Shown here one piece after another: positions 35,068-51,665 of a stretch of 57,978 nt of DNA; the stretch's first letter is position 1; each line of letters opens with the position of its first letter. The stretch covers positions 1-57,978 of the IMG/VR virus record IMGVR_UViG_3300005253_000632, one strand, 5' to 3'. The notes beneath the pieces were generated by a model. It was not told the DNA's origin. It saw only the letters and a list, made by a program, of their open reading frames with translations, and made no database searches. The stretch comes from a virus (taxonomy: Duplodnaviria; Caudoviricetes). The translations under genes were made by a program, and so were the position numbers.

Positions 35068-35074
35068 CGGACAT

Positions 35075-35270
35075 TGTGCGTCGGCCGGCGGCGTGGCAGC
35101 GTCGGGTAAGAGTGTTGGAGTAGCAGCCAGGTGTGAAAACTCCAGCAGTGTGGCCGCGAACCTGAGGAACAGAGAGGGCCACGAAACGGGGCAACCCGTG
35201 CTCTCGCAAGAACTGTCAAGCGAACGAGAGTGTTGGTGCCGGGTGGGGAATCCGGCCCGGCTGACGCGCA
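35075..35270 (+). ncRNA. Putative structured RNA element E1 (tRNA-mimic-like family)
   Basis: 5' TGCGTCGGCCGG pairs with 3' CCGGCTGACGC; GGCGTGGC box; 3' GCCGGG-loop-TCCGGC hairpin. Confidence 0.6.
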
Positions 35271-35385
35271 TAAAACGAGCCGCAGTCCGTCACGTAGCTG
35301 CGGCCCGCCTATGGAAAACAAGCAACATGCACCCTAGCAACCTCATTGCTGCACGTCAAGGCCGAATCTCCGCGGGAGATCCCCG

Positions 35386-35580
35386 ATGAGCGACACTAAA
35401 CCGTGCCCTGAATGCAACGGGAAGATGATTCAATGGCCCACGGGCGTCGTGTTGTGCTGTTATCCTCCCAAAACGCCGTGGATATGGAAGTGCGGTTGCG
35501 GCCATACCGAAAAGGGTGGCAAGTGGGTAGGCCAAACGGACGAACAGAGCTTTCAGGACGAATGGAAGGCAAGGCAATGA
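35386..35580 (+). CDS. Zn-ribbon-like protein, paralogue of 57378..57584
   Basis: CPEC..KMIQW...W.W.CGCGH.EKGG. Confidence 0.7.
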   Translation: MSDTKPCPECNGKMIQWPTGVVLCCYPPKTPWIWKCGCGHTEKGGKWVGQTDEQSFQDEWKARQ

Positions 35581-35957
35581 GCGACACTGTTGGCCGGTTC
35601 GCCTGGCATTGCCACCACGATATGTTGCTCGAAATCCTGGTTGAGCCCCACGAAACACGTGTGGCACACATCACGGGCTGGAAGCGGGTGAGCGAGATTG
35701 CGACCCGCCTGCGGCTATTCGAGTTGGTTCAGGGTAAACTGCCGGATGAAGTAATTGCTGCTGGCAAGAACTACATCGCCGCGCGGGAGAACTGGGTCGT
35801 CATGCAGAAGAGAGGCAAGGCTGCGCTGGAGAGATACGTCGTTGCGCGGGAGAAGTGCGCCACCGCGATTGCCGGCCACGCCGACGAGATCAACGCCCTG
35901 CACGCTGCCGAGTGCCCGGACTGCCCGTGGAATGGTGTGACGATATTCCCTGAATGA
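35577..35957 (+). CDS. Hypothetical phage protein
   Basis: AWHCHH ... LH..ECPDCPWNG.TIF. Confidence 0.65.
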   Translation: MSDTVGRFAWHCHHDMLLEILVEPHETRVAHITGWKRVSEIATRLRLFELVQGKLPDEVIAAGKNYIAARENWVVMQKRGKAALERYVVAREKCATAIAGHADEINALHAAECPDCPWNGVTIFPE

Positions 35958-36038
35958 ATGACTCAAACGGCCGCAATGTGCGTAGATTTTACCTTGAAGT
36001 TTGCCAAAATGGCAGTCCGGGCGGCGGGTAGTTGGCGC

Positions 36039-36067
36039 TTGCACTTGGCGTGCGGTCCGACTACAAT
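36039..36067 (+). promoter_or_regulatory. Promoter TTGCAC-17-TACAAT
   Basis: Near-consensus hexamers in intergenic DNA. Confidence 0.55.
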
Positions 36068-36090
36068 GCCTGCGTTCGGGAAACCGTACA

Positions 36091-36140
36091 GCCGCCCTGC
36101 GTCGCCTTTCTAGCCATTGGATCTCGCGGGGCGGTTTTTT
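36091..36140 (+). terminator. Intrinsic terminator
   Basis: GCCGCCCTGCG ... CGCGGGGCGGT stem followed by T run. Confidence 0.7.
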
Positions 36141-36144
36141 GCGC

Positions 36145-36172
36145 TTGACGGGGGCAGCGGGCGCAGTAGGAT
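36145..36172 (+). promoter_or_regulatory. Promoter TTGACG-16-TAGGAT
   Basis: Immediately after the terminator, upstream of 36243. Confidence 0.55.
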
Positions 36173-36242
36173 ATGTGAATGATTCAATGGCGTTCATCAA
36201 ACCAATTCAACCCTACAGACAGCCAAATAGACTGGGGGCGAC

Positions 36243-37031
36243 ATGGCAGTGGCAACCGCAACCAATAAGAAGATGACCGAAGCCGACTACCGGGTGCGGC
36301 GCACACAGATCGACGAACAGGTCGAAGCCAAAGAAGAGCGCGTCAAGGCCTACGGCGATCAGGAGTTGGCAAAGTTGTTCTGGGCTTCCGGCTGGCTGCA
36401 AAAGGAGCTTGCGTCGCAGGAAGGCAAGTCAGAGCCGTGGGTGTGCTGTCGTCTGAGATTCGGATCGTTCCTAAACTGGCTCGAATCAGAGAAATTTACG
36501 GCGCGTAAATTTCAGCAAGTCGTATCCAAGAACCTGACTGAATTCCGCTTCCGCTCCTACTGGGAGCAGACCTCCGGTACCAAGGACACCGCCCGGTTTC
36601 GCAATGTGTGGAAGATGATGCAGGACGAAACGCAGTTGGTTCATCCCCGCGAAAAGACCCGCGACATCATCACCAAGAAATGCGACCCGCACGAGTGGTA
36701 CGCCGGGCAAGAGATACAAGAATTGACTGGCCTGACCGAGAAACAGGTCGCGAACGCAACCCAGCGAATGTATGACCTCGGGCTTTGCGAAACGAAACAA
36801 ACAGCGCACGGGCTTGCCTATCGCATTCGCAAAGGTGAAGGCCGCACCAAGATTGATACTGCCTGGCTCAAACAACTCCGCAAAGATGCGGACGCACTGA
36901 TCCGCAGTATCATCAAAAGCGCTACGGGCGACGAGGCGCGCTACAGCGCGACCGGCGTGGCCATCGACGCCGGGAAACTGAAAGACCTTATGAACGAACT
37001 CAAGGAACGAATCACGCCCAGCTCTGCATAG
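36243..37031 (+). CDS. Hypothetical protein with HTH-like segments
   Basis: GWLQKELASQEGKS..WV..RL; second EIQELTGLT...V segment. Confidence 0.7.
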   Translation: MAVATATNKKMTEADYRVRRTQIDEQVEAKEERVKAYGDQELAKLFWASGWLQKELASQEGKSEPWVCCRLRFGSFLNWLESEKFTARKFQQVVSKNLTEFRFRSYWEQTSGTKDTARFRNVWKMMQDETQLVHPREKTRDIITKKCDPHEWYAGQEIQELTGLTEKQVANATQRMYDLGLCETKQTAHGLAYRIRKGEGRTKIDTAWLKQLRKDADALIRSIIKSATGDEARYSATGVAIDAGKLKDLMNELKERITPSSA

Positions 37032-37085
37032 GCCGTTGTTGGCCAAACGCATCCGGGCAACCTCTGCGTTTTTAGGAGTTTTGTT

Positions 37086-37946
37086 ATGGAATTGGTGAAA
37101 TCAGAAACAGTGGACCTCACCCCACGGTTGGCTCAGGAGTTTGCGTCAATGGCGCCCTCTCCAACCGAGCGGGAGTCGAGTGCCAAGAGGAAGAAGTTTC
37201 TGGAGAAGGAACACATGAGCGGACGGTTCAAGGCCGTCCACTGGGTCAAGGCCCAACTGAACGGGACAATATACCGCATGAATGGCCAGCACTCGGCGGG
37301 TATGTTGGTCGATCTCGACGGCACATTTCCGCAAGGAGCCAAGGCGCACATCGACACCTACAGCGTCGAGACGCCCAGCGAGTTGGCTCTGCTGTTCCGA
37401 ACCTTCGACTCGCGAAACTCGGCGCGGTCGGCACTCGACGTGTCCGGCGCGTACCAAGGGCTGAGTGAAGTGGCCGATGTGGATCGTCGTCTCGCCAAAA
37501 TGGCGCTAACTGGCATCGCATGGTTCAGCAAGACCATCGACAAGCAAGCCTTGCCAAGCGGGGACGATCTGTTTGATCTGTTTAGCAATGCAGATTACAA
37601 GGAGTTCATTGTCTTCTATGGGCAGGTGTGTTCGCCGCGAACCAAGACGCAAGAGCTGCAAACGGCTCCGGTGGTCGCCGCGATGTACGGGACGTTCCTC
37701 AGGAACGAGGAGCAGGCACGGGTCTTCTGGCCGGCTGTGGCCTTGAACAACGCAGCCGATGACAGCGACCCGGCCCAACTCCTCAGCACCCAACTGGTCG
37801 AGGTCCGCGAGAGCCTTGACGTTCGCTGGGGGCCGAAGACATACTACGCGAAATGTATCAAGGCGTGGAATGCTTTTCTGGGAGGCAAGCAGATCAACAG
37901 TCTCAAGGTCAACACCAAGAAGGAGCTGATCGGGATTCTGGCCTAA
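37086..37946 (+). CDS. ParB/DGQHR-like domain protein
   Basis: LTP.LA...., MNGQHS, F..FD...SARS..D; AGGAG RBS. Confidence 0.55.
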   Translation: MELVKSETVDLTPRLAQEFASMAPSPTERESSAKRKKFLEKEHMSGRFKAVHWVKAQLNGTIYRMNGQHSAGMLVDLDGTFPQGAKAHIDTYSVETPSELALLFRTFDSRNSARSALDVSGAYQGLSEVADVDRRLAKMALTGIAWFSKTIDKQALPSGDDLFDLFSNADYKEFIVFYGQVCSPRTKTQELQTAPVVAAMYGTFLRNEEQARVFWPAVALNNAADDSDPAQLLSTQLVEVRESLDVRWGPKTYYAKCIKAWNAFLGGKQINSLKVNTKKELIGILA

Positions 37947-37994
37947 ACCGCTCGCCGATGCGCCCTGCGGGGCGTATCCGCCAGGAGTTTAGAC

Positions 37995-38144
37995 GTGAGC
38001 GAGACCTGCAAATTCCCCCAATGCCGCAGCCGAGAGATCGAGCTGATCTATCTCGGCAAGCCTTTATGCTTGAAGCATTGGCGAATGTTGTGCCGCAAGT
38101 ACGATGAGCCGCAGGACATCAAGAAGGTGCTGAAGATCCAATGA
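37995..38144 (+). CDS. Small Cys/His protein (not in ORF track)
   Basis: AGGAG RBS, GTG; CKFPQC...LCLKH. Confidence 0.55.
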   Translation: MSETCKFPQCRSREIELIYLGKPLCLKHWRMLCRKYDEPQDIKKVLKIQ

Positions 38145-38334
38145 GTGTCAGCCAATCCCGCCGCGAAGATTCGCAGATTTCTGCCAGCCGGCGGCGGGCA
38201 CAACATGCGGTGTCCGGCTGGCGACGGCCGCCAAGGTCTAGTACGTCTGCCATGTGGGACTAGCCTAGTCCTATTTGTGAGTAAAAACGCCAGCACGGTA
38301 TGTTCTTGACATGTTTTGTGGTGCCGTATAATAG

Positions 38335-38472
38335 CCCAATAACCCAATGGCTTTCCCAATACCCAATCCGAAACCTGTCCATAGGACACCCAATAACCAA
38401 TACCCAATGGCCAATAAGCCCAATACCCAAGTCAGCAATCCGAGCCGCGACGGTAGCCGATTGGGTATTGGG
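38335..38472. repeat. Cluster of (C)CCAAT(A) short repeats with an inverted pair ATTGGGTATTGGG
   Basis: About eight CCAAT units within 100 bp, downstream of TTGACA-15-TATAAT. Confidence 0.75.
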
Positions 38473-38826
38473 TGTTCTGTCGAACACAAGAGAATTGGGT
38501 TGGAGTTCAGGTCAAACGGCTGGCCGCATATCACCAATGCCATGTTGCGCGATGACTTCGCGCTCGTCGGCCTGTATGATTACTACGTCAGCGCGGGGTT
38601 CATGCCTGATACTGAGGAGGGACTTCTAATCTTATTCGAGGCTGCCCAGAACGCCATTGAGCACGGCAAACGCAACAAGCCCGGCCTGTTTGTTGCACGG
38701 CTGTGTGATTGGCGAACCCACAGACTGCACAGGATCAAGCACGCGACCTGCGACCGCGCTCATGCACGGCTGAAGCGTGCGCGTGGCCATGATGCCGTTG
38801 CGCCACGGGCAAAGGAGGCGAGATGA
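38347..38826 (+). CDS. Hypothetical, possibly replication-related protein
   Basis: Repeats in 5' part; C-terminal NKPGLFV..L resembles initiator C-termini. Confidence 0.4.
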   Translation: MAFPIPNPKPVHRTPNNQYPMANKPNTQVSNPSRDGSRLGIGCSVEHKRIGLEFRSNGWPHITNAMLRDDFALVGLYDYYVSAGFMPDTEEGLLILFEAAQNAIEHGKRNKPGLFVARLCDWRTHRLHRIKHATCDRAHARLKRARGHDAVAPRAKEAR

Positions 38827-39083
38827 GCGAGCCAGGCTGTACGGTCTGTACCCATCACATTAAGCCAATGAAGTTGTCCACTTGCAACAGTTGCAATCCT
38901 AGTGGTCGCTGTTCTTGTACGATCTGTGGGCTGCAAGCCGAGAACGCCGCCCTGCTCGCGGCGTGTGAGGATGCCGACATTTGGTTCGATCAGAACATGG
39001 CCTGCGAAACCAGTGCATCGTTTCAACGATTGCGGCACAAGTTCACCGCCGCAATCGCCAAGGCAAAGGAGGCCGAACGGTGA
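38823..39083 (+). CDS. Chimeric small Cys-rich protein
   Basis: N-half matches 56813..57079, C-half identical to 32494..32751. Confidence 0.75.
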   Translation: MSEPGCTVCTHHIKPMKLSTCNSCNPSGRCSCTICGLQAENAALLAACEDADIWFDQNMACETSASFQRLRHKFTAAIAKAKEAER

Positions 39084-39322
39084 GCTACACTGATAACCGC
39101 AAACCGTGGACGTATCGAGGCTGGAACATCAGGCCCACGACGACAATCGGGTGGATGCGCGGACCCTATCAAGCCGATCGCCTTCTGCGGCAATGGGAAA
39201 TCGCGCGACCCGGACGTGGAACACGCAAGTATTCTCGCACCAAAGCGGGTGCGAGGGCTTACATCGACAAGGCCTGCGAACGCTCGGCCTGTCCTGAGCG
39301 CAGCCGAAGGGAGGCGACATGA
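39080..39322 (+). CDS. Hypothetical, paralogue of 46292..46486
   Basis: DNRK.W.YRG ... SRTKAG.RAYID. Confidence 0.65.
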   Translation: MSYTDNRKPWTYRGWNIRPTTTIGWMRGPYQADRLLRQWEIARPGRGTRKYSRTKAGARAYIDKACERSACPERSRREAT

Positions 39323-39347
39323 CCGCGACCAAACTGAAAGGACGAAC

Positions 39348-39650
39348 ATGAAGTATTCAATCAAGCCAATCACAATTGCCCCGAAGGTGTGGCTGGGCGT
39401 GGATGGAGATGGCGAGTGGCGTCTTTTTTATGCGAGCCGCAAGCCAGAGGATGAGTGGCACGTGTCTTCGGGCCGGCAGTGCTTGCTGGACTTCGCAGCA
39501 CTTGTTCTCCGAAACACAGAAGCGGTTGAACTTCTGATCATTTACCAACTGTATGGTTTGCTGCCCAGTATAGAGCAGTTCGACGACCGCGCCGTGCAGA
39601 AGCTCATCGACCGCGCGAACGAGCTGTGGACATTCGAGGTGGAGAAATGA
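39348..39650 (+). CDS. Hypothetical protein bracketed by 14 bp direct repeat
   Basis: AAAGGA RBS. Confidence 0.6.
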   Translation: MKYSIKPITIAPKVWLGVDGDGEWRLFYASRKPEDEWHVSSGRQCLLDFAALVLRNTEAVELLIIYQLYGLLPSIEQFDDRAVQKLIDRANELWTFEVEK

Positions 39651-40282
39651 CCGCGACCAAGATGAAATCCTTGTGCCTGACCGGCCCGGAGGTCCGCACG
39701 CTGCTCAAGACCGGCAAGCTCGTGCAGTTTGTGGTGATGGAAGATGGGCCGACTGGCCCGTGCCGAGTTCAGTGGGATCAGGATGCGCTAGAGTTCTCGC
39801 ATTGGGATACCGGATACGAAGAGGATGGCGTTACAGTTGCCTGCCCCTTCGCCCCCGGCGAGCGGCGCTGGGTGAGGGAGGCGTGGGCAATTGTGTGGAC
39901 CAAGCATGAGCCGGACGAAGGTCAGACGATTTGGGATGTGCCGCACCGCATTGAATACAAGGCGGACAGCGACGCAAAATACCCCGGCAACTGGCCGGAT
40001 GATTGCGGGGATGATGAGGAATGCCCACGCTGGCAATCTCCGATGCACATGCCCCGCCGCGCATCCCGCCTCACCGTCGAGGTCGTCGCTGTCGAGGCGA
40101 TGCAGATTCAAGAGGCGAGCGAGACAGATGTCAGGCAAATGGGCCTAGCGATTTTACCGGAGACGGTCCACGATCGACCGGAACTGTGGGCGGTGTTGGG
40201 AGAGTCCTGGGACGCCGCCCACGCCAAGCCGGAAGAGAAGTGGGACGCGAACCCGTGGTGCTGGAAGGTGACGCATGACTGA
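39647..40282 (+). CDS. ASCH/PUA-like phage protein
   Basis: CPF.PG.R.WVREAW, W.SPMHMPR.ASRLT.EV, W..NPW.W. Confidence 0.75.
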   Translation: MTATKMKSLCLTGPEVRTLLKTGKLVQFVVMEDGPTGPCRVQWDQDALEFSHWDTGYEEDGVTVACPFAPGERRWVREAWAIVWTKHEPDEGQTIWDVPHRIEYKADSDAKYPGNWPDDCGDDEECPRWQSPMHMPRRASRLTVEVVAVEAMQIQEASETDVRQMGLAILPETVHDRPELWAVLGESWDAAHAKPEEKWDANPWCWKVTHD

Positions 40283-40646
40283 CAAGGTGGCGAAGCCAAT
40301 TCCGCCGAAAACAGAAGATGAGCTGAAGCAACTTGTGCGCGATCTGGTAAGCGGGAGGGTGTTCGTCAACAGCATGATTCCCGAAGGCGAGACACGTGCT
40401 CTGGGCATGGTTTTCATGGTCCTCAGCCTGGGCGGGCTGGAAGGCATTGACACGTCCACGATTGGACAGATTTGCGAATATTACCACAAGGCCGGGCTAG
40501 GTAGCATCAACGGCTTCCCGATGTTCTATTCGGCGCAACTAATCAACGTCGAAGACTGGGCCAAGGTGATATCAATGGCTAATGCGATCGAGGCTGCGAC
40601 GACGGCAGTCTTGAAAGGCAATGCCCAAGGCGTGCTGAAAGGGTGA
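40275..40646 (+). CDS. Hypothetical protein
   Basis: EYY.KAG..SINGFPMF.S. Confidence 0.65.
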   Translation: MTDKVAKPIPPKTEDELKQLVRDLVSGRVFVNSMIPEGETRALGMVFMVLSLGGLEGIDTSTIGQICEYYHKAGLGSINGFPMFYSAQLINVEDWAKVISMANAIEAATTAVLKGNAQGVLKG

Positions 40647-41156
40647 GTGATGGACAAGGCTGGTTGTTGGTTAGCGGGCGTGGTCTGTGGCTTGTTGGCG
40701 TGCTTTGTGTTCTATGCTTTTGGGCTGCGGCCAGAAGCGAGAGGAATAGGCTATCGCAATGGGCAGATAGATGCGGCAAACGGCGTGATGAAGTACGAGC
40801 TACGCGAACAGGACGACGGGACGACAAGCTGGGAGCGGAAAGGCGATGATGCGAATGACTGAATTGTGGGCGTCAATCCCCGAGTGGTTGCAAGTGATGC
40901 TACTGTTGGCCGTCGTAGTGCCATTCGTTATGTTCGTCGTTTGCGAAGGGTTCTTTCGGTTTTTCGCTGGGAGGCGGTGATGCGAAATGAAACGTGCGAA
41001 TGGAATGGTGCCAGTTGGGCAACGTGGAACGTACGGACAACTAATGTAACCCCGCCCCGTCTGCTGTCGTGCTGGCACTCCTGTGTGGAGGATGACTCCC
41101 ACAAGAGGCTATTCCAGTTACGGCAGCGGCGGGGCGGATGATTCGAGGACAGTGAA

Positions 41157-41453
41157 ATGAAAACGATAACAGTAACGGAGTTCAAAGGACACAAGGAGAA
41201 AATTACAATGATTCTATGCGACAAGTGCAAAGAGAAAAACGTAGAGACTCCAATCGAAACAACCGGCGTGCCGAATGTCGATGTTGCGAGTCGCCACAAA
41301 GCCACCCTGTTTGTGACTTTCATGGTTGCTGAGGGCGACATTTGCGAAGTAAGCGATTCTGAGATGTTTGCCAAAGAATTCGAGGGCGATTGGTGCCAGA
41401 GTTGTGTTTGCGAGAAGTTGCTGGAGCTGTTAAGCGCGACCAAGGGCGGATGA
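41157..41453 (+). CDS. Cys-containing protein bracketed by 16 bp direct repeat
   Basis: CDKC...CQSC; visibly lower GC. Confidence 0.65.
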   Translation: MKTITVTEFKGHKEKITMILCDKCKEKNVETPIETTGVPNVDVASRHKATLFVTFMVAEGDICEVSDSEMFAKEFEGDWCQSCVCEKLLELLSATKGG

Positions 41454-41478
41454 TTCGAGCGGGCGCGGCCCGTGAAAG

Positions 41479-41670
41479 GTGATGGTGATGGCGAACAAAG
41501 ACCTGAAACTCCGTCCACATCGTATTCGTGGGCGCGATGATGTGTGGTGGTACGAGGACCCCAAAGGTATTGATATCTGTTACAAGCGGAATCACTTTGT
41601 CGTTCCGTGGCGAGCGATACGCAGTGCGCTTGCCCGAAAAGACAGCCACACAACGAAGAAGGCCAAGTGA
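41479..41670 (+). CDS. Hypothetical protein
   Basis: AAAGG RBS; WWYED..GI. Confidence 0.55.
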   Translation: MMVMANKDLKLRPHRIRGRDDVWWYEDPKGIDICYKRNHFVVPWRAIRSALARKDSHTTKKAK

Positions 41671-41674
41671 AATG

Positions 41675-41848
41675 ATGCGTCGGCCGGCGGCGTGGCAGCG
41701 TCGGGTTCGGGCTTGACGGGAGCGGGCCTTGCCAACCCGTGCGGGGCTGTAATGGACATGCGTCTTTGATTGATCACATTGGCGTGAGGGTCCGTTCTTC
41801 GCCTTAACAAGGTACAGCGGGAAGCCCGGCCCGGCCGATGCGTTTTTT
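41675..41848 (+). ncRNA. Putative structured RNA element E2
   Basis: First 31 nt identical to E1; 3' CCCGGCCCGGCCGATGCG closes the stem; T6 follows. Confidence 0.6.
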
Positions 41849-41857
41849 GAAAGGTAG

Positions 41858-42472
41858 ATGACGATGAGCAGCAGCAAGCCGGAAGCGAAACATGAGCCAC
41901 TAACGAATGCAGAGCTAGTTATTCTGGCCAATAGAGAATACGACGTTGAGCACATCGGCGAACGCGCCGTCGCCGAAATCCGCGAGCTAGGGAGCGAGAA
42001 GGCCGCCCTGCTCGCGGCGCTGGAGACGTACGGGGTACACTATGAAAGTTGCCCACACCTGATGCACAACGTCGTCCCGGCCGATGTGCCAGAAGGGACG
42101 CTTTGCACCTGTGGCCTCGACGCCGAGCTCGCGTCGGGCGGGAAAGCTGATAGCCATCAGCGATCAGCGGTCAGCGATCAGCCGGAAGGGGAGATAATAA
42201 ATCCCCCGGACGTGGTGACGGCCGTATATCAGATATTGGCCCGTGTGGCTGGCGATTCAGAGGGGCCTTACGGGACCGACGAATTAGTGGTCGATCTGAA
42301 CGCAATCTTAGCCGCCGTCGAACCGGCGGCTTCGGATGTGCAGGCGCAGTGCGAGAGTGAACCTGGGCCACCTTACGTTGACCCGTTCAAAGAGCCGTAT
42401 GGAGCCGAACCGGCTAGGGATGAGATGCCCGAAGCCACTCAGCCGGAGGCCCCGGCGAAGGAGAAAACATGA
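41858..42472 (+). CDS. Hypothetical mosaic protein
   Basis: EKAALLAA module, YG.H..SC...CTCGLD. Confidence 0.6.
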   Translation: MTMSSSKPEAKHEPLTNAELVILANREYDVEHIGERAVAEIRELGSEKAALLAALETYGVHYESCPHLMHNVVPADVPEGTLCTCGLDAELASGGKADSHQRSAVSDQPEGEIINPPDVVTAVYQILARVAGDSEGPYGTDELVVDLNAILAAVEPAASDVQAQCESEPGPPYVDPFKEPYGAEPARDEMPEATQPEAPAKEKT

Positions 42473-42885
42473 GCACCACATTTGTTGCCAACACAACGCT
42501 GTTTGTAGAGCACTGTTCTCAATGCGGTCTAACCTTTGCAATGCCGGAGAGTCTCGAAAGGGAACTAAGGCAGAATCACAAGATTTTCTATTGTCCCGTG
42601 GGGCACGGTATGCATTACTCAGGCGAATCCGACCTAGAGCGAGAGTGCCGGCATCGTCAAGAGATACAGAATCGCTTGACGAACGAGCTGTCATACCACG
42701 ACCAAACGCGTGCCCAACTTCGGGACACCGAGCGGAGTCGCAATGCCCACAAAGGCGCGGTTACCCGCATCAAGAACCGCGTTGCCAGCGGCGTGTGTCC
42801 ATGCTGCAAGCGAACGTTCAAGCAGCTCGCCGCGCACATGAAGACGAAGCATCCGACATGGAACAAGAGCGAGGCCCTCGCGTGA
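42469..42885 (+). CDS. Zinc-finger protein
   Basis: CSQCG, FYCP.GH, CPCC.R.F..L..HM..KH. Confidence 0.75.
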   Translation: MSTTFVANTTLFVEHCSQCGLTFAMPESLERELRQNHKIFYCPVGHGMHYSGESDLERECRHRQEIQNRLTNELSYHDQTRAQLRDTERSRNAHKGAVTRIKNRVASGVCPCCKRTFKQLAAHMKTKHPTWNKSEALA

Positions 42886-43460: not shown

Positions 43461-43509
43461 TGTCCCATTTCAGGCCCCCAGCACCCCCTTATAAGGTAGG
43501 GAGCGTGCT

Positions 43510-43921: not shown

Positions 43922-44077
43922 CGTGCCGATCGGCGGCGTGGCGGGTAGCGGGAATAGGCCGGTACCAGGCCGAATACCGACGGATGCCACGGCAGGGACG
44001 CCTGAAATGGGAACGGTAGTTGGGTTCGACTCCCACACCATTCGTGCCGGTGATGCAAACCCGGCCCGATTTGTACG
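43922..44077 (+). ncRNA. Putative structured RNA element E3 containing a canonical T-arm
   Basis: ATCGGCGGCGTGGC ... CCCGGCCCGAT closure; TGGG-TTCGACT-CCCA at 44021-44035. Confidence 0.55.
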
Positions 44078-44096
44078 GATTGACGCCGGCGGGGCC

Positions 44097-44240
44097 TTAA
44101 TCCTCTGCCATGTCTAACTTTTGTGGTGGCTTCGGGCTTGGCGGTGTTGGCTCGTCATCGTCTGCGTCCACGGGCGGGGCGGGCTTGAATCCGAAGCCCT
44201 TGAGTGGCTCTTCCACGATGTTGATTTTGCCAAGGTCCAT
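44097..44240 (-). CDS. 47 aa Pro/Asp-rich protein, last gene of array 1 (not in ORF track)
   Basis: ATG 6 nt after TACAAT; MDLGKINIVEEP... Confidence 0.55.
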   Translation of the reverse strand: MDLGKINIVEEPLKGFGFKPAPPVDADDDEPTPPSPKPPQKLDMAED

Positions 44241-44282
44241 CGTGACATTGTATCACAGTGTCGCTTATTCATCAAAGCGACA

Positions 44283-45179
44283 TCATGGATGCGCAGCTAC
44301 GATTCGTCTCCCGATCCATTCGGCGACTTGCGGGACGACGGCGTTGGCGAGCCCTCTAAGTCGGTCCACCCTTCGGGGAACCCCATGAGCCACTCGATCC
44401 ACGTCGGGTTCAGTTGACCACCAAGGGTCTCTGATAATCCCATTGCTCCCCGTCGCGGCGAAACATTTCCGCCCTTGATCGCGTCGGTGCTGGTTGGAGT
44501 CGGGAACCTCGCTACCGCAGTCGCCAGATCGTCGCTGCCCGTGCCCGGACGGCTGGCCCTGGCAAAGTCCGGTCCGCTGGGGCTGCTCTTGGGAATGGGC
44601 CATCGTTTGGGAATAATCCCCGCCTCGCGAAATTTTCGTATGGTATCGTGATTCGTTGTTTGTTCGTTGTAGACTTCGCCCATTGACGCTGTTGCGGTGG
44701 GCAAGAATGAAAACCCGATATCGGATATGCGGGGCACCAACGGCTGCTGCCGGAATACAATCCCATTCCGCATCGTACCCGCCATCGGCCAAGTTTCCGA
44801 GAACTCGATCCATCCCCCGAACAAGCAAAGCTGCGACGTTTTCCACGAGCACGTATCGGGGTCGTAGCTCGCAAATGATTCTGTAGAACTCAGACCACAA
44901 CCCGCTTCGCTGGCCTTCGATTCCTGCCCGCTTGCCGGCGCTGCTGATGTCTTGACAGGGGAAGCCCCCACAAATGAGATCAACGGATTCCAGATTGCGG
45001 ATACCGACTGTTCTAACATCTTCGTATCGCTCCACGGTTGGCCAGTGTTTCGCTAGGACCTGACAGCAGTAATCATCAATTTCGACCTGCCATCGACACG
45101 CCATGCCGGCTCGCTCAAGGCCAAGATCGAGCCCGCCGATGCCAGCGAATAGGCTACCAAATGTGATGGGCTGTGGCAT
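44283..45179 (-). CDS. dcm: C5 cytosine DNA methyltransferase, main (alpha) polypeptide
   Basis: SLFAGIGG, GGFPCQ, ENV, HIRYRVF, RLRGLANAV. Confidence 0.92.
   Translation of the reverse strand: MPQPITFGSLFAGIGGLDLGLERAGMACRWQVEIDDYCCQVLAKHWPTVERYEDVRTVGIRNLESVDLICGGFPCQDISSAGKRAGIEGQRSGLWSEFYRIICELRPRYVLVENVAALLVRGMDRVLGNLADGGYDAEWDCIPAAAVGAPHIRYRVFILAHRNSVNGRSLQRTNNESRYHTKISRGGDYSQTMAHSQEQPQRTGLCQGQPSGHGQRRSGDCGSEVPDSNQHRRDQGRKCFAATGSNGIIRDPWWSTEPDVDRVAHGVPRRVDRLRGLANAVVPQVAEWIGRRIVAAHP
44297..45019 (-). CDS. Overlapping-frame (beta) polypeptide of the C5 methyltransferase
   Basis: 240 codon open frame inside dcm; PTP repeats and LNP.W.EWLMGFP.GWT (motif IX-like). Confidence 0.7.
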   Translation of the reverse strand: MLEQSVSAIWNPLISFVGASPVKTSAAPASGQESKASEAGCGLSSTESFASYDPDTCSWKTSQLCLFGGWIEFSETWPMAGTMRNGIVFRQQPLVPRISDIGFSFLPTATASMGEVYNEQTTNHDTIRKFREAGIIPKRWPIPKSSPSGPDFARASRPGTGSDDLATAVARFPTPTSTDAIKGGNVSPRRGAMGLSETLGGQLNPTWIEWLMGFPEGWTDLEGSPTPSSRKSPNGSGDES

Positions 45180-45220
45180 GGTGACCATTGTACCAAGAAT
45201 GTCGCTTTTCATCCAAAGCG

Positions 45221-45520
45221 CTACTCTAACGAGATACGCTCTTCGTGCTTGAATATGTGCCCGAAGCGGCAGACAGAACAATGGCACGTATAGTGTGCCG
45301 TGAACAGTCCTGCCCGGCTCAGAAAAAACTCATAGTCTTCGCGCAGGCTTTCCTCTTGGTTGTCGGCCGTTGGTTCTGCGCCTAGGGCTTTTCGCTTTTC
45401 GTCGAACTCTGCGACAGGAATCTTCCCATAGGTATCGGCAACCTCCCGTTTGGCGGCTTCATGTTTGGCCTGAGCCGCCAGAAGGCATTTGGGGCATACT
45501 GACCAATTGTCGGCGGACAT
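45221..45520 (-). CDS. Cassette-like gene, Zn-binding
   Basis: MSADNW..CPKC ... SLREDYE ... CSVC; TAG inside the palindrome. Confidence 0.8.
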   Translation of the reverse strand: MSADNWSVCPKCLLAAQAKHEAAKREVADTYGKIPVAEFDEKRKALGAEPTADNQEESLREDYEFFLSRAGLFTAHYTCHCSVCRFGHIFKHEERISLE

Positions 45521-45547
45521 TCGATCTTCCTTTCAATGGTGTCGCTT

Positions 45548-45946
45548 TCAGCCAAAGCGCTGCTGCTTATCGGCCCATGCTTTGTGTGTCCGCGTGTAGG
45601 CGAGTCGGCGGGCCTTTCGCTGTGAACTCGCATTACCATAGAACACCGCACGCCCGTCTTGCTGAACCACATACGCCACCCATTCGCCGCGCTTGATATG
45701 GATCAAGATTGGAGCGCTGCACCACCCGTGGCCATGACGCCGACCATCGTACGGCCCGCCAACAAAGACGTACTTCTCCCGCTGGCCTCGCGCGGACAGC
45801 TCTTTCGATACTTCGGCCTTGTGGTCAGCAATCCATGATGAAACTAGGCCGGGCTTAATAGACTCCGGCTGCTGCATGATTAGTTCGCCGTCCCAATCCA
45901 GTCCGAGCTTGAAGCCGAGAGCTTCGAGGACGTCAATAACGAACAT
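45548..45946 (-). CDS. Cassette-like gene
   Basis: AAGGAG RBS; FVGGPYDG; stop in the palindrome loop. Confidence 0.75.
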   Translation of the reverse strand: MFVIDVLEALGFKLGLDWDGELIMQQPESIKPGLVSSWIADHKAEVSKELSARGQREKYVFVGGPYDGRRHGHGWCSAPILIHIKRGEWVAYVVQQDGRAVFYGNASSQRKARRLAYTRTHKAWADKQQRFG

Positions 45947-45980
45947 CGTTTCTCCTTAGAGTGTCGCTTTGTGCAAAGCG

Positions 45981-46253
45981 CTACTCTGCTCCAGCGGGCG
46001 GCTTCTCTTCGGCCTTGGCTCTCGCCAGTGCCATATCGTGCTCAAACAGGTCCTCTTCGTTCATCTCGTACAGTGACGGCTTACAGTCCACGCCCCACGT
46101 TCGATCACAGATGCGACAGAACGACTCCGTTCCTTCGTCTACGCTGTCTCTGAGTATCCACACGCTCCGGTGGTTCAGTTCGCAGTGACGCACACGGCTG
46201 CGCTCCGCCGCGATACGCCGTTCTTGTGCATCCGGCTTTGTGGTTTTTGGCAT
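45981..46253 (-). CDS. Cassette-like gene
   Basis: AAAGGAG RBS; CRIC; TAG inside the palindrome. Confidence 0.75.
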   Translation of the reverse strand: MPKTTKPDAQERRIAAERSRVRHCELNHRSVWILRDSVDEGTESFCRICDRTWGVDCKPSLYEMNEEDLFEHDMALARAKAEEKPPAGAE

Positions 46254-46291
46254 TGAGTCTCCTTTCGGAGTGTCGCTTTCATCCAAAAGCG

Positions 46292-46486
46292 CTATTCGGG
46301 TTTGTTGGCCTCGTCGATGTAGGCCCTGACCCCGGCTTTAGTGCGGGAGCTTATGGATGGCCGGCACACCAAGCGGAATTGCCATTGCAAGAAGCGTCTG
46401 TGGCCATCCCGAATCACGATTGGTGTTATCAGGTTGCCCCGGTATTCCCACGATTTGCGATTGTCGCATTGCTGTGCGTTGCTCAT
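46292..46486 (-). CDS. Cassette-like gene, paralogue of 39080..39322
   Basis: AGGAGG RBS; TAG inside the palindrome. Confidence 0.75.
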   Translation of the reverse strand: MSNAQQCDNRKSWEYRGNLITPIVIRDGHRRFLQWQFRLVCRPSISSRTKAGVRAYIDEANKPE

Positions 46487-46675
46487 TGCAGGGCCTCCTA
46501 TTCTGCCCAATCCTACCACAGGGTGTCGCTTTTGCAAGAAAGCGACATTCAAAACGACGGGCTGCAGGCTTTTACTGCGGCACGCCGCAAGGCGCAAAGG
46601 CAGGACACCCGTTCGTGTCCATCGCCGCTTGCATCCAGCAGATTGTCTATAGCCGCTCCGCTGGCATCCAATGAC

Positions 46676-46703
46676 ACTATACCACATTCGCAACGAGCGA
46701 CAA
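46676..46703 (-). promoter_or_regulatory. Promoter TTGTCG-16-TATAGT with TGTGG, facing array 1
   Basis: Same geometry as other phage promoters in this window. Confidence 0.55.
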
Positions 46704-47449
46704 GCAATAATAGTGTGATGGCAACTGCCATTGTGGCAGACAAGAACGAAACACGCTCCGAGCGGAGCTTCGGCGAATAGCCGGCCCTCTGCGTTGACGA
46801 GCGAATAGGGCGATTGGCGCAAACCTCAGGCGCGACGTACACCCGCCCGGCCGGTGCATCGGCGAAATGATGGGGTTCGCATATTGAGCCCCGGGGGTGA
46901 CTTGGCCGGGAGAGACCGGCCTCCATTTGATATGCAGCTAAATACGGACACAACTGCATGCGACCCTGGATCAGCAAGAGCGTTCTTGCACAGGCCAGAC
47001 GCGCAGGAACTGCTGACTCGACATTCCGCCAAATGCTGCTCGCACGGGGCCATCAGCACAACCTACGCTCCCTGTAATTGCGGGGCCTAAGAGAGGGCAC
47101 GGGCGCTGCTTGCCATTTTGACATGAGCCACACCAACGGATGCGAATGCCTAACTTGCAGATTGCAGGCGTTTCTCATGCGCCCGGGAATCAGACGAATG
47201 CTCACCGAACACAGTCTATTGTGTTGCTCCTATGAGGAAGCCCCAGCGGCTGAGCACTCATCGGCCCGATTGTGCGATTGCGGCGCATCCCAACGGGCCG
47301 CAGACCTAGAAGCCCTGTTCGTATGATGTTCCAACTCCTGCTCAAACCAGTGCCCGCCGGCCGCGACGGCGACGGCCGCGATCCCATTTACCGCTTGCGC
47401 GGGGCGCTCAAGGTGGCGTTGCGACGGTTCGGTTTGCGGTGCATAAGCT

Positions 47450-48013
47450 GTGAAACACTCGAAATTTCCGCCCCAGGTCTACACGAAAGACGAGCTCAAT
47501 CGCATTCTGATGGCCTGCGGCGGTCACCCAAACGGGCTGCGAAATCGGGCGATCATAATGATGGGCTACCGCTGTGGGTTGCGATGCGCAGAGGCGCTGG
47601 CGCTCCACCGATCGGACATCGCTCTGGACCAAGGCCACGTGCTGATTCAGAGGGGCAAGGGCGGGAAGTCGCGGCGAATCGGGCTGCCGGATGACGCTGC
47701 GGCTGCCGTTCGTTCCACGTGGAACGCGGAGCCCATGCGGGGCGAGTGGGCGTTCCCCACCTCGAGCGCAGGAAAGCTGTGTACCTCATACGTTCGAACC
47801 CTGTTGCCGCGGCTGGCCCGGCGGGCGAACATCGCTAAGCGCCTGCACTTCCACGGCTTACGCCACACCTTCGCCTGGGAGCTGTCACAAGAGGGGGTGC
47901 CGATGCCGATCATTCAACGGGCCTTGGGCCACAGCAGCTTGAACACCACGGCGGTCTATTTAGACCATCTGGCCCCCCATGATGTGATCAACGCGACGCG
48001 GAACCGCGCATAA
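47450..48013 (+). CDS. Tyrosine recombinase, catalytic domain only (187 aa)
   Basis: GLR, GKGGK, HGLRH, LGHS, TAVY: complete R-K-H-R-H-Y set. Confidence 0.92.
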   Translation: MKHSKFPPQVYTKDELNRILMACGGHPNGLRNRAIIMMGYRCGLRCAEALALHRSDIALDQGHVLIQRGKGGKSRRIGLPDDAAAAVRSTWNAEPMRGEWAFPTSSAGKLCTSYVRTLLPRLARRANIAKRLHFHGLRHTFAWELSQEGVPMPIIQRALGHSSLNTTAVYLDHLAPHDVINATRNRA

Positions 48014-48170
48014 AACGACCGCCGACACATCCGTGTCCCGGCGGCCGGGTCCATGATCAACCGCGAGCATACATCCCTATGCCATCCTGTCAAGCAACAA
48101 ATGCTGCAACAAAATACCGAATTTGTTGCAAGGTCGCAGGTCAAACCAAGCAGAAACCAGCGAGAAACCA

Positions 48171-48386
48171 ATGGCCGAGCTTCCCGCCAGCCACTCCAAG
48201 GCGCTGAACAAGGGCCGCACCAAGAAGCTCCAGCGCCGCCTCACGTCGATCGACGCACAGCTCCGCACCCGCCGGGCAGCGATCAGCGAACAGCAGACGA
48301 TCATCCATGGCCTGCTCAAGACGCGGGAACGCCTGGACAAGCAACTGTACGAGGTGGCCAAGCGAGGTGGCCAAGCGAAAGGATGA
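48171..48386 (+). CDS. Coiled-coil hypothetical protein
   Basis: Heptad pattern. Confidence 0.55.
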   Translation: MAELPASHSKALNKGRTKKLQRRLTSIDAQLRTRRAAISEQQTIIHGLLKTRERLDKQLYEVAKRGGQAKG

Positions 48387-48595
48387 ATATGTCCGCAACT
48401 CGACTGGATTTCAGCTTCAACATCGGTCAACAACTTCTGATTAACGCAAATGGCAGGGGGGGCAAGGTGGGCAAGGTAATCGGGCTCTATATGAATCGTG
48501 ACGGTATCCACTTCGCTGAAGTCGAGTACTTCACGGATCAGAATGATCGTCGCGAGCAAATGTTCCGGGAAGAGGATGTGAGACCCATTGGCTGA
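48383..48595 (+). CDS. Small SH3-like beta protein, paralogue 1
   Basis: VGKVIGL...RD.I.FA.VE.F ... FREED. Confidence 0.65.
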   Translation: MNMSATRLDFSFNIGQQLLINANGRGGKVGKVIGLYMNRDGIHFAEVEYFTDQNDRREQMFREEDVRPIG

Positions 48596-48680
48596 CACCG
48601 CCACACTCAACAACTGGATCACGTTTCTCGGCCTGTTGGCCTACCCCGCCGCAGTGATGGGGGGTTGTCTCGTTGGATGA

Positions 48681-48896
48681 TTGACTGAAAGGATGAAAAT
48701 GGCACACGTGCGCGTTGAATTCAAGTTCCCCCTCCTCAGCCAAGTGAAGATCAAGGCTACGGGCGCCGTGGGCAAGGTGATTGGCCTTTTCATTGATCGG
48801 GACTCGATCACCTTCGCACTCGTCGAGTGGTTCGACAAGACCGCGCAACAGCATCGGACATACTTCCGCGAAGAGGACCTCGAATCCGTTGGCTGA
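48681..48896 (+). CDS. Small SH3-like beta protein, paralogue 2
   Basis: Same motif as 48383..48595. Confidence 0.65.
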   Translation: MTERMKMAHVRVEFKFPLLSQVKIKATGAVGKVIGLFIDRDSITFALVEWFDKTAQQHRTYFREEDLESVG

Positions 48897-49230
48897 CCCC
48901 ACCGCCAATCTCGGCGAACTCGCGATCACGGGCGGCCCCGGGCGTCCGAAGGGCTCCAAGAACAAGGCCACGCGATACCGCGCCTTGATCGACGAGGCCA
49001 TGAGCCAGGATGACGAGCGGGCGATCTGGCAGGCCCTGATTGGGTTGGCCAAGGGCTGTTCCGAAGTGCCCGCCGACGTGATTGCGGCCCGCCTCATTAT
49101 GGAGTATCGTTACGGCAAGCCGCGACAGGTCATCGAGGCCGACGTGAATATCGGCCTGCAAGAGCTTGTGTTTACGGTCGTTCCGATGTCTAATGAGAGC
49201 GAGACGAACGATGGCGATCCTGACCCATGA
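48889..49230 (+). CDS. DUF5681 / terminase-small-subunit-like protein
   Basis: GPGRPKGSKNK, L...A..G, AARL..EY..GKP.Q. Confidence 0.6.
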   Translation: MADPTANLGELAITGGPGRPKGSKNKATRYRALIDEAMSQDDERAIWQALIGLAKGCSEVPADVIAARLIMEYRYGKPRQVIEADVNIGLQELVFTVVPMSNESETNDGDPDP

Positions 49231-49918
49231 AAGCTTTGGCCGCAAACAGGGGCGGACAGCGAGGTTGCGAGCGCGGCAAGCGGAATTGGCCGTGGCCCAG
49301 GCACTCAAGCCTGAAGCGAGCGACAGGCCCTGCGGGTGCTCGCCGGGCACCGTGTGCACTAAGTGTTTTGGCAAGCCGGCGCCCGCAAAGCCCAGGCCGA
49401 TCGCCCGCGAGCACCCCGAATGGGCCTATGCCGCCGATTGCGCCTGCTCGGTATGCAATGAGTTTTGGACCGCATTCAAAGAGAACCACGACGGAGCCGA
49501 TCCGCCGCCCAAGGTGCCAGCCAAGGTTGAATGCCTCGTGTGCGGGGCTGGCCTGGCAGCTCCACCCGGCGAACCTCTTGAGCACAATCTGTGTGCCGTT
49601 CATGCTTCGGCTACGCCTGACCCAATCGTCAACGAAGCCAAGGCTGCTACGCAGACCATCGAACAAATCACCGAGCGGGTCGTGACGACGTTTCGAGAGC
49701 ACAACGAGTGGTATCCTACGGGCCAACGCTACGACACAACATGCGCGTGCGATTTCTGCCTAGCCGTGCGCAACGATCCAATGTTCCCCGGCGAACCGCA
49801 TGGCGCGTTCGCGCCTGTCGGTGTTGGTTCCGTAGTCCCAGCAACGCAAAAGCAGCCCGACGCCGACGCCTTCATCCGCAAGCAACTGAACGCCAACCTG
49901 CGCGGGGTGTTCACATGA
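49211..49918 (+). CDS. Multi-Cys hypothetical protein
   Basis: CGC..C..C, CACSVC, CACDFC. Confidence 0.6.
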   Translation: MAILTHESFGRKQGRTARLRARQAELAVAQALKPEASDRPCGCSPGTVCTKCFGKPAPAKPRPIAREHPEWAYAADCACSVCNEFWTAFKENHDGADPPPKVPAKVECLVCGAGLAAPPGEPLEHNLCAVHASATPDPIVNEAKAATQTIEQITERVVTTFREHNEWYPTGQRYDTTCACDFCLAVRNDPMFPGEPHGAFAPVGVGSVVPATQKQPDADAFIRKQLNANLRGVFT

Positions 49919-50003
49919 GCGACGAATGGCGATTGGCACTGAACGTGTACGCCATCGTGATATCGGCGGTGGCGATCATTCTCGCATTGCGGCGGTCCAG
50001 AAA

Positions 50004-50330
50004 ATGACCGAACTCGCCTCCATCAACGCCAAGATCGACCGGCTGAACCGCAAGCTCAAGGCGGACCCAATAGCATTCACCCTCAAGCTTCCGGCAACCA
50101 AGGCAAACATAAACCAATTGGGCTGGCAACTAGATTGTACAGCTCGCCAGAACGGGACCATCTATGAAGGCTCGATTGCGTTTCGGTTTGATCGTCTTGG
50201 TGACTGTCTCGTGCTGTGGGATGAGGCAGAAGCCCTATTTGGCGACGAACACGCCGAGCATGTGCCATCGGATATCAAACTCTTCGCCCGCAAGATACAG
50301 CTCGCCATACTGGAGCGGCTGACGGGATGA
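50004..50330 (+). CDS. Hypothetical protein
   Basis: ATGA coupling. Confidence 0.55.
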   Translation: MTELASINAKIDRLNRKLKADPIAFTLKLPATKANINQLGWQLDCTARQNGTIYEGSIAFRFDRLGDCLVLWDEAEALFGDEHAEHVPSDIKLFARKIQLAILERLTG

Positions 50331-50678
50331 AAGACAACGACGGCTATATCGCGCTTCTGCTGGTAGCTATTGTGGTTGTCTGCATCTGCGCGATAGCACA
50401 CATCGCCGACACTACTGCACACGGGCTTTGATCGATGGCGATAGCACGAATCGGCCACAACCCATTTCTGAGGTTGCATCCAACATCTTTAGTGAATGGT
50501 GCCGCATTGGGCATTTGCCCAAGCTCTTCATTTCTCGGCTTGTGGTTGGCGATCCAGATTGCATCCGAGCGTGGCAACTGATTGACGCTCACCACGGGAT
50601 CAAGTGGACGCCACCGCCCCATCTATGCAAGGCATCACCGCCGTCGCCTGACCCGGTTTTCGCCTGAAAGGAACAATC

Positions 50679-50939
50679 ATGGCATTCCTCGCGGATGGGC
50701 TGTCGAGCCCCTTATTTCAAGAATGGTCTAAAACCTGCGATCTGCCGAAAGAGTGTCGCCGCATGGCAATAGACGTGGCAGTCGATGATGTTGTCATCGT
50801 GTACTACGAATGCTTTGGTGACGAAGAAACGCTCGCCAAAATGCCATCCCTCAAGGGCGCCAAGGTTGTTCACGTCGCAAGCCTGCGCCCGAACTGGCTG
50901 GGCCGGGCCTTGCGTTGGTTCGGCCAAAAGCCCAGTTGA
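50679..50939 (+). CDS. Hypothetical protein
   Basis: AAAGGA RBS. Confidence 0.6.
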   Translation: MAFLADGLSSPLFQEWSKTCDLPKECRRMAIDVAVDDVVIVYYECFGDEETLAKMPSLKGAKVVHVASLRPNWLGRALRWFGQKPS

Positions 50940-51244
50940 ACCAAGTCTAAATTTACACCAAGGACTCATTATGTCATTGTGCCGACCGGGCTGTTGCCAG
51001 TCCGCCAGGAAGACGGGAGCTGCGTGGATCGACCGCACGCTTGCTAATCTGTGTGTTTCCGAGCGACTGCGCCGTAAGCTGATCGACCAAGCAAGCCTGT
51101 TTCTGCTGAATGGTTTCTCCGCCGCCGACTTGAATGTGCGAGTGAGCTGTGGTGGGCGGGCAGAAGTAGTGGGCCTCGTTGGTGTGGCGCTCCGCATCGT
51201 GCCGCTGAGCATTCTGAGCGGCGGGGAATAGCCCGCAACCGGAT

Positions 51245-51472
51245 TCAAAGAATTCGGATTTTATCCTCGCAGCGCGCTATTCCAACATCAGCCCCAATTA
51301 CAAAGCACTTAAATCCATGTTCGGTGAGCCTCCCCAGAATAACCGGGCCTAGCCCATTCAGCCGGACCTCTAAAATTAGGCCGTCACGGCTGTCACGGGG
51401 TTGGCGCAAATTCGCCTCTATGGTATTGTCTGTGGGCGATTCTTGCTCTCCCTTGACTTTCCATTTAGTCAT
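51245..51472 (-). CDS. Hypothetical protein downstream of E4
   Basis: AAAGGATAAGG upstream. Confidence 0.55.
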   Translation of the reverse strand: MTKWKVKGEQESPTDNTIEANLRQPRDSRDGLILEVRLNGLGPVILGRLTEHGFKCFVIGADVGIARCEDKIRIL

Positions 51473-51490
51473 AGCCTTATCCTTTCAATA

Positions 51491-51665
51491 ATGCGTCGGC
51501 CGGGCCGGATTCCAGCGACATCCACTGCGGGCCTTTGCCGCTGCCAACTAAACCGCGAAAGTCGTACCGGCCGAGAGGTTTGATGTCTCGCCGCAGGCCC
51601 AATCGTGGTCGGGCGTTTGCCCTGCGGCGCGCGGTTCACTCACGCCACGACGCCGGCCGACGCGT
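51491..51665 (-). ncRNA. Putative structured RNA element E4
   Basis: Minus strand GCGTCGGCCGGCGTCGTGGC ... GGAATCCGGCCCGGCCGACGC. Confidence 0.6.

Follow-up and report, generated by a model that had tools for sequence, protein, structure and literature searches.

Correia elements, ERIC and BOX are short (about 100–250 bp) intergenic repeats whose terminal inverted repeats pair in mRNA and can alter the stability, processing and expression of a neighbouring gene. BOX elements have conserved ends and a variable middle. Here we describe elements similar to these, four copies of which (E1 to E4) lie in a virus of the Caudoviricetes known from IMG/VR record IMGVR_UViG_3300005253_000632; the window analysed is the whole of this virus record, 57,978 bp with 58% G+C. 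The safest statement is that E1 to E4 belong to a so far undescribed family of clamped structured elements that are lineage- and strand-specific and lie between phage genes, and in which conserved 5' and 3' ends form a closing helix (P1) around a first hairpin (P2), a last hairpin and others between them. Correia, ERIC and BOX elements have a conserved core or repeated modules and are present in tens to hundreds of copies on cellular chromosomes, with a TA target duplication in CREE (Correia repeat-enclosed elements), whereas the phage elements have unrelated interiors in 25 of 28 pairwise comparisons, at least eight copies, all on phage contigs, no consistent duplication and a clear strand bias. 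The CREE of Neisseria binds RNase III (PMC2649163).

Intrinsic terminators are similar in that a G+C-rich helix is followed by a U-run, as is the case in five to six of the eight copies, but their strands are separated by 3–8 nt, and those of P1 by 130–210 nt. The RNase III sites of phage T7 (the work of Dunn and Studier) reportedly occur in multiple copies between cistrons, punctuate polycistronic mRNA and stabilise 3' ends. They share with the phage elements their multiple copies, intercistronic position, operon sense and common helix segments; they differ in that each is one hairpin, about 60 nt long and interrupted by an internal loop, whereas the phage elements are a 13–14-bp clamp around 130–210 nt of hairpins. 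An RNase III site needs about two turns of double-stranded RNA, and P1, if stacked on P2 or on the last hairpin, would make about 18–20 bp. [quoted passage not shown] The ends of the present elements are complementary over 11–14 bp in eight of eight copies; homology over the whole length, as in MITEs, is not found, since interiors are alike in only three of 28 pairs, one of them orthologous.

Conserved ends, a closing helix and unrelated interiors

The copies analysed are as follows; P1 coordinates were derived from the sequences, the motif matches and the pairing analysis, and L217, L219 and L238 are contigs found by a metagenome scan.

35075–35270, plus strand: E1; P1 pairs 35075–35088 with 35257–35270
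from 35089, plus strand: E1 P2 hairpin, CGGCGU-GGCA-GCGUCG
ending at 35256, plus strand: E1 last hairpin, GCCGGGU-GGGGA-AUCCGGC
41674–41844, plus strand: E2; P1 pairs 41674–41687 with 41831–41844; P2 is the same as that of E1
43920–44079, plus strand: E3, the divergent copy; P1 pairs 43920–43933 with 44066–44079
43900–43913, plus strand: upstream one of two 14-nt direct repeats, CCGGCGGGGCCTTA, on either side of E3 (read from the sequence)
44086–44099, plus strand: downstream copy of the same repeat (read from the sequence)
51490–51666, minus strand: E4; P1 pairs 51666–51653 with 51503–51490
668–846 of L217: copy L217a
1462–1696 of L217: copy L217b
1144–1322 of L219, minus strand: orthologue of E4
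10369–10516 of L238: the L238 copy

A sequence-only reading of the window had proposed E1 to E4, and all four are present where and on the strand that it gave them, each with conserved 5' and 3' blocks. The 5' motif CGGCCGGCGKCGTGGC is found without mismatch at 35082, 41681 and 51659 (minus strand) and with two mismatches at 43927, in E3. The other ten of the 14 matches in the window at three or fewer mismatches all have three (the shuffle mean is 3.96), and none of these ten reappears among the paired matches when the window is scanned more loosely for the two blocks. Matches to the 3' motif lie at 35251, 41825 and 51509 (minus strand), and a composite pattern (5' block, gap of 101–161 nt, 3' block) has three matches in the window against a mean of 0.00 in 100 shuffles; E3 holds a shorter core, CGGCGGCGTGGC...CCGGCCCG. 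The 5' block reads (A)TGCGTCGGCCGG followed by CGGCGKCGTGGC, with a 16-nt core that has no mismatch at three sites and two at E3, and the 3' block reads CCGGC followed by CCGGCYGAYGC at three sites and by CCGATTTGTAC instead in E3. The parts of these blocks that pair are (A)UGCGUCGGCCGG and CCGGCCGACGC(AU). The 5' ends of E1 and E2 agree at 35 of 38 nt, and their 3' ends at 19 of 24 nt. A loose scan for further copies gave noise alone. CCGG and GGCC are not avoided in the phage genome, which lends no support to a role of the element ends as restriction-site decoys.

P1 is a G+C-rich helix of 13–14 bp between the conserved ends, where the sequence-only reading had seen about 12 bp. In an alignment of the eight copies (of which seven are independent, the L219 copy being an orthologue of E4) over 14 pairs, 95.5% of 110 cells are paired and six of the 14 have changes in both partners; in 500 shuffles neither the observed pairing nor the observed covariation score is ever reached, and registers slid by 1–3 columns are 28–43% paired. 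Most of the two-sided changes come from E3, whose closing stem, as had been noticed, truly covaries (C-G to U-A and G-C to A-U within P1); E3 has two compensatory pairs and one C.U mismatch there. By hand count the first 14 P1 positions contain about 12 G.U or U.G cells against one C.A, and the 3' strand of P2 in E1/E2, L217a and L238 alternates solely between C and U opposite G. The minimum free energy of the named strand is below that of its complement in all eight copies, by 3.7 to 27.8 kcal/mol, so it is the fold of one strand that is under selection, be it RNA or possibly single-stranded DNA. In E1–E3 the G over C skew exceeds the coding mean without being extreme.

The first hairpin, whose 5' strand is the conserved CGGCGKCGUGGC, is flush with P1 in four of the eight copies. 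The last hairpin, with 3' strand CCGGC, abuts P1 in seven (it is shifted in E2), which extends to most of the family the adjacency first seen in E1 and E3; it reads GCCGG-UGAUGCAAAC-CCGGC in E3 and GCUGG-AAU-CCGGC in E4. The minimum-free-energy folds place two to four more hairpins inside P1, and these are unrelated among copies. Folding z-scores against shuffles are –3.79 for E1, –2.10 for E2, –1.81 for E4 and –0.89 for E3, the last not significant. The claim of unrelated interiors was borne out: of the 28 pairs only E4 with its L219 orthologue, E1 with L217a, and an edge shared by E1 and E2 exceed shuffles, and within the window this E1–E2 edge alone does so (three of 200 shuffles reach it).

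No known RNA family accounts for the elements. Rfam 15 gives no match in the window at gathering thresholds, and at E≤10 on 34900–52000 it gives three weak matches, none on an element, in agreement with the proposal that the family is undescribed. The further suggestion that the elements mimic tRNA is not supported. A closing helix with the last hairpin stacked on it does recall tRNA-like structures and YrlA, as does a T-loop-like hairpin, UGGG-UUCGACU-CCCA, in the interior of E3; the T-loop consensus is, however, present in that one copy of the eight, P1 has 13–14 bp instead of 7, no CCA follows it, and with its default settings ARAGORN detects neither tRNA nor tmRNA in the window. At 70% thresholds ARAGORN draws poor, mismatched cloverleaves in six of the eight elements and none in the other two. 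Several other candidates were considered and set aside. A bacterial Y RNA (YrlA) has no Rfam match here, and no Ro/TROVE gene was found among 40 open reading frames (ORFs) scanned with Pfam, some small ORFs lying outside that scan; a retron was set aside since no reverse transcriptase was found among the scanned ORFs; a mimic of CRISPR repeats was dropped; likeness to 5S RNA, 6S RNA and RNase P RNA was dropped for want of an Rfam match; the two end hairpins are unlike each other, which does not fit IS200/IS605-type ends; and the order of motifs does not fit a hammerhead core.

Distribution and placement between genes

Scans for further copies required exact matches to the end blocks. The metagenome scan with the exact pattern returned at least 117 stretches, most of them chance matches in G+C-rich coding DNA, and yielded at least four further true copies with full end blocks and pairing, on the three contigs L217, L219 and L238. 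The eight copies span 150–235 nt (E1–E4 160–200). L238 codes for relatives of window proteins (62% identity over 565 aa to the ORF at 24215–26281), and L219 matches the E4 region at 88.6% nucleotide identity. In IMG/VR, a 16-mer scan gave no true copy among the at least 117 stretches listed (one of 117 has a chance 3' motif nearby), a 20-mer scan gave ten stretches, all coding and none true, the composite pattern gave one stretch that is not a copy, and a relaxed composite pattern gave three stretches, none true. The strict pattern matched 16 stretches in GTDB, searched with one genome per species, none of them true and none with the CGGCGKCGTGGC block, and megablast of 33000–53000 against 50,697 phage records found no match. 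A 17-mer with one mismatch is matched in 299 of 401 Planctomycetota genomes; a backwards-read control also matches, usually less often, so this probe is specific only in part, and of 30 Planctomycetota loci fetched none has a 3' block that fits the family (one nearby match reads CCGGCCCGGCTCCTGCCT). Since the IMG/VR, GTDB and phage-collection scans gave no true copy among the matches listed, the family looks confined to a small phage lineage.

The elements fit closely between genes. E1 starts 7 nt past the TGA of the ORF at 34768–35067, and an extra hairpin lies downstream of it at about 35279–35305. E2 starts 3–4 nt past the TGA (41668–41670) of a 60-aa ORF and is followed by UUUUUU; its end is 6 nt before AAAGG (41850–41854), which precedes the ATG at 41858 or 41864 of a 204-aa ORF. 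An ATG at 44110 lies about 30 nt downstream of E3. E4 is followed by AUUAUUG, AAAGGA and the ATG (51472) of a 75-aa ORF on the minus strand (51245–51472), and its 5' end is 12 nt from the ATG (51678) of a divergent epimerase gene, so that E4 fills the whole intergenic region. L217a, L217b and L238 start 1–5 nt after stop codons, and GUUUUUGA(A)AGG and a start codon follow the first two. Thus six of the eight copies (E1, E2, L217a, L217b, L238 and E3) begin 1–8 nt after a stop codon on the same strand, the placement of E3 being less certain in that no convincing upstream ORF was called, and four (E2, E4, L217a and L217b) end 5–25 nt before a ribosome-binding site and start codon.

At least four U residues lie within 2 nt of the end of P1 in five of the eight copies (E2, L217a, L217b, L219 and L238); E4 has UUAUU, and E1 and E3 are without such a run. 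AAAGG(A) is the usual ribosome-binding site of the phage, and among the sites listed only that of E2 follows a T-run (that of E4 follows ATTATTG), so the U-run after P1 is part of the element. The close fit from the stop codon of one gene to the ribosome-binding site of the following one, together with the frequent U-run, points to a cis-acting role in mRNA. The sequence-only reading had all copies intergenic and in the sense of the local operon, and this stands for E1, E2 and E3. It stands for E4 with respect to the 75-aa ORF, in a region that is divergent with the epimerase gene, and fails for the L219 counterpart of E4, which is antisense to both flanking ORFs: this copy lies 3 nt after the stop codon of one and 34 nt before the start of the next, with UUUU, and no minus-strand gene, behind it. 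The stretch of about 25 nt that precedes E4 and the L219 copy is conserved and includes a –10-like TATGCT 7 nt before P1. No common promoter motif was found in the 70 nt upstream of the eight copies, a sigma-70 scan gave no site in or just before any element, and a terminator scan listed none of the P1 helices.

Junctions between related genomes coincide with element ends. L219 runs collinear with the window to either side of an extra 259 nt in the latter (51231–51489, containing the 75-aa gene) that begins at the 3' end of E4. In contigs from another sediment study (run X4) homology breaks at 41674, the 5' end of E2, and the same contigs jump from 41704 to 41826, between the inner edges of the E2 conserved blocks, which suggests another copy with a different interior. 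Among the contigs listed there is also a hint, given no weight here, of a variant phage in which E1 and E3 differ little and their flanks more. Element copies occupy non-homologous sites in related phages. Repeats flank two of the copies: the 14-nt repeat around E3 (given as 9 nt outside P1), which may stem from target duplication or belong to a small hairpin, and a 6-nt TATTGA on both sides of E4; the other six copies have nothing consistent.

Possible roles and origin

The reading that we favour, tentatively, is that the elements act as RNA in operon transcripts, either as leaky terminators and 3' stabilisers or as sites for a double-strand-specific RNase, and that they are of MITE-like origin. 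They would lie within polycistronic phage transcripts, in the gap from a stop codon to the ribosome-binding site of the following gene, where the P1 clamp would fold the insert into a compact domain. P1 and the U-run could then serve as a leaky intrinsic terminator and 3'-end stabiliser; with a ribosome-binding site directly after four of the copies, termination would have to be partial. Alternatively, P1 could be a processing site for a double-strand RNase, like the T7 RNase III sites or the Correia elements. Either action would punctuate the operon and set the expression of the small gene downstream. As to origin, the elements may be MITE-like insertions, or derive from such insertions, with ends that selection maintains and interiors that are free; the non-homologous sites in related phages and the mosaic breakpoints at element ends suggest such insertions, and the breakpoints taken with the antisense orthologue point the same way.

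Several observations weigh against this reading. Only E3 and E4 of the eight copies have flanking repeats, so that target-site duplication is not consistent, and the 59 ORFs scanned with Pfam or PHROGs include no transposase, which leaves mobility conjectural. A terminator with a "loop" of 130–210 nt would be unusual. No gene directly follows E1 or L238, and E1 lacks a U-run. The L219 copy is antisense to the two plus-strand ORFs, with a coding G+C pattern, between which it lies, and E4 sits in a divergent promoter region, so that not every copy can act purely in cis in sense mRNA. The ends are conserved (35 of 38 nt between the 5' ends of E1 and E2) beyond what a helix alone needs, and the conserved GUGGC sits in the loop of some copies and in the stem of others, which suggests a sequence-specific partner. 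The covariation rests largely on one divergent copy, E3, in a set of eight that includes the orthologues E4 and L219. Finally, the public runs that contain DNA of this phage are marine-sediment metagenomes, none of them recorded as RNA.

If the elements were instead purely selfish DNA, a MITE-like repeat mobilised in trans or by recombination, tolerated only in the few intergenic gaps of a compact phage genome and without RNA function, their 13-bp terminal inverted repeats, their size (150–235 bp), the non-homologous sites in related phages, the antisense L219 orthologue, the 14-nt repeat that brackets E3 and the rearrangement junctions at element ends would all find a place, and MITEs are on record, if rarely, from phages (PMC11602168). 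We nevertheless consider this unlikely. MITE copies share their interior, and here 25 of 28 pairs are dissimilar; an excess of G.U over A.C and a more stable sense strand in eight of eight copies are not expected of inverted repeats that matter at the DNA level. The inconsistent target duplication and the lack of a transposase among the 59 scanned ORFs tell against it, and none of the 16 pattern matches in GTDB species genomes is a true copy. Also improbable, in our judgement, is that the elements are stable small RNAs on a common scaffold, cut from the operon transcript or made from their own promoter, with P1 guarding the ends, the U-run as a terminator tail and the variable interior as the working part (a decoy, sponge, regulator or aptamer). 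Paired ends with a U-tail do resemble stable closed-stem RNAs, the fold is strand-specific, and a conserved junction with a variable periphery is typical of protein-bound RNAs; moreover the L219 copy stands alone on the minus strand between plus-strand ORFs, with UUUU and no gene after it, and the TATGCT upstream of it and of E4 may be part of a promoter. The absence of a common upstream motif among the eight copies and of sigma-70 sites in or just before the elements argues otherwise, as does the difference in interior fold, in the 3' third, even between the orthologues E4 and L219; the scanned ORFs, many small ones of which have no family, include no match to Ro/TROVE, Cas6-like, RtcB or reverse-transcriptase proteins.

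A bolder form of the RNA reading, which we regard as quite doubtful, makes the elements a new phage RNA class in which the conserved clamp junction of three helices (P1 with the bases of P2 and of the last hairpin) would be a universal scaffold and processing signal. Swappable structured inserts between cistrons would be freed by double-strand or tRNA-type nucleases of the host or by self-cleavage, and the freed, end-protected small RNAs would act as decoys or regulators during infection; if so, they would be an RNA counterpart of gene cassettes. Far less probable is that the elements are folded single-stranded DNA sites at which a phage tyrosine recombinase exchanges gene cassettes, like integron attC or CTX-phage attP. 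The concept of attC accommodates pairing ends, a variable centre, a strand-specific fold that tolerates G.T and small accessory genes alongside; the window does encode a tyrosine recombinase (47450–48013), and the presence of a gene immediately next to the E4 and L219 copies varies. There are, however, no R/L core sites of the form GTTRRRY/RYYYAAC (the ends read GCGTCGGCCGG and CCGGCCGACGC), P1 has no extrahelical bases, bulges or central bubble, the copies are about 2–7.5 kb apart and form no cassette array, and the recombinase looks like an ordinary phage integrase beside what its repeats suggest to be an operator-rich control region. A new class of self-cleaving ribozyme, with the junction of P1, P2 and the last hairpin as core and variable peripheral helices, is similarly hard to credit. 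Small ribozymes are common in phage contexts, conservation here is centred on a multi-helix junction, and the elements are multi-copy, strand-specific and between phage genes; set against this are the lack of an Rfam ribozyme match, the scarcity of conserved unpaired nucleotides and the shifting position of GUGGC between loop and stem.

If the elements do work as RNA, a tightly packed phage genome carries non-coding inserts of 150–235 nt in its operons, clamped shut, with which it could grade or punctuate how its small early or accessory genes are expressed. Near-invariant ends combined with wholly unrelated interiors are unusual both for structured RNAs and for MITEs, and imply a sequence-specific partner or a cassette-like exchange of RNA modules. 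In mosaic phage genomes the elements may, in addition, be markers of recombination junctions. The family is small and known from metagenomes only, and its general importance is uncertain.

Genome context and other repeats

Genes identified in the window with Pfam and PHROGs are the following.

306–1745: large terminase
1961–3667: portal
5332–6747: HK97-type capsid
30244–31587: SMC-like ATPase
32525–33595: YqaJ exonuclease
33956–34759: RecT
44283–45287, minus strand: C5 DNA methylase
47450–48013: tyrosine integrase
51678–52673: GDP-fucose-synthase-like epimerase
54891–55871: GDP-mannose 4,6-dehydratase

A methyltransferase (10720–11529) and a sulfotransferase (12125–12823) join the epimerase and the dehydratase as auxiliary sugar and modification genes. 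The region from 35 to 52 kb consists mostly of small ORFs without a family match in Pfam or PHROGs. Searches for related viral contigs with RecT, the 204-aa ORF and a 138-aa ORF as queries gave relatives at 31–32% identity or none. Portal homologues of at most 41% identity are present in 27 of the 401 Planctomycetota genomes, and at that level we draw no host assignment. Some 6-bp palindromes are scarce in the whole window (observed against expected: GGGCCC 2 against 16.5, CTGCAG 3 against 15.8, GTCGAC 2 against 17.1, CCCGGG 9 against 21), which suggests avoidance of particular host restriction systems.

The integrase ORF (187 aa) is a catalytic domain alone (Pfam Phage_integrase, residues 11–174); the ORF at 47272–47694 overlaps it in another frame and may hold the N-terminal part, by a frameshift or a miscalled start. 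Inside the integrase gene, at 47704–47726, lies a palindrome, GTTCCACGTGGAAC, that resembles the parS consensus, with a partial copy at 41009–41031. Contig depth in run X1 rises about 50-fold at 44310–44424, within the C5 DNA methylase gene, with many loose ends, and this looks like a methylase segment common to many other genomes of the same samples. The 1 kb upstream of E2 (40650–41672) looks non-coding by G+C content at third codon positions, yet has several ORFs of 40–98 aa with AAAGG ribosome-binding sites; run X4 has many small indels at 41073–41116, and part of this stretch may truly be non-coding. The starts of some small ORFs are near-identical (39310–39339 and 39638–39667, 83%; 48439–48469 and 48749–48779, 71%), and these neighbours appear to be tandem paralogues of small early genes.

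A second repeat family consists of palindromic hairpins of about 26 nt, TGTCGCTTT-N6-8-AAAGCG(A/C)(C/T)A, at 44258–44283, 45200–45229, 45960–45989, 46271–46300 and 46524–46553. The hairpins at 45546–45564 and 46271–46300 are just upstream of the AAAGGA of minus-strand genes that start at 45520 and 46253. These palindromes could serve as operators for a repressor or as small RNA hairpins between cistrons; their half-site TGTCGC is present in E4 and in the L219 copy, and L219 has the full palindrome, TGTCGCGACA.

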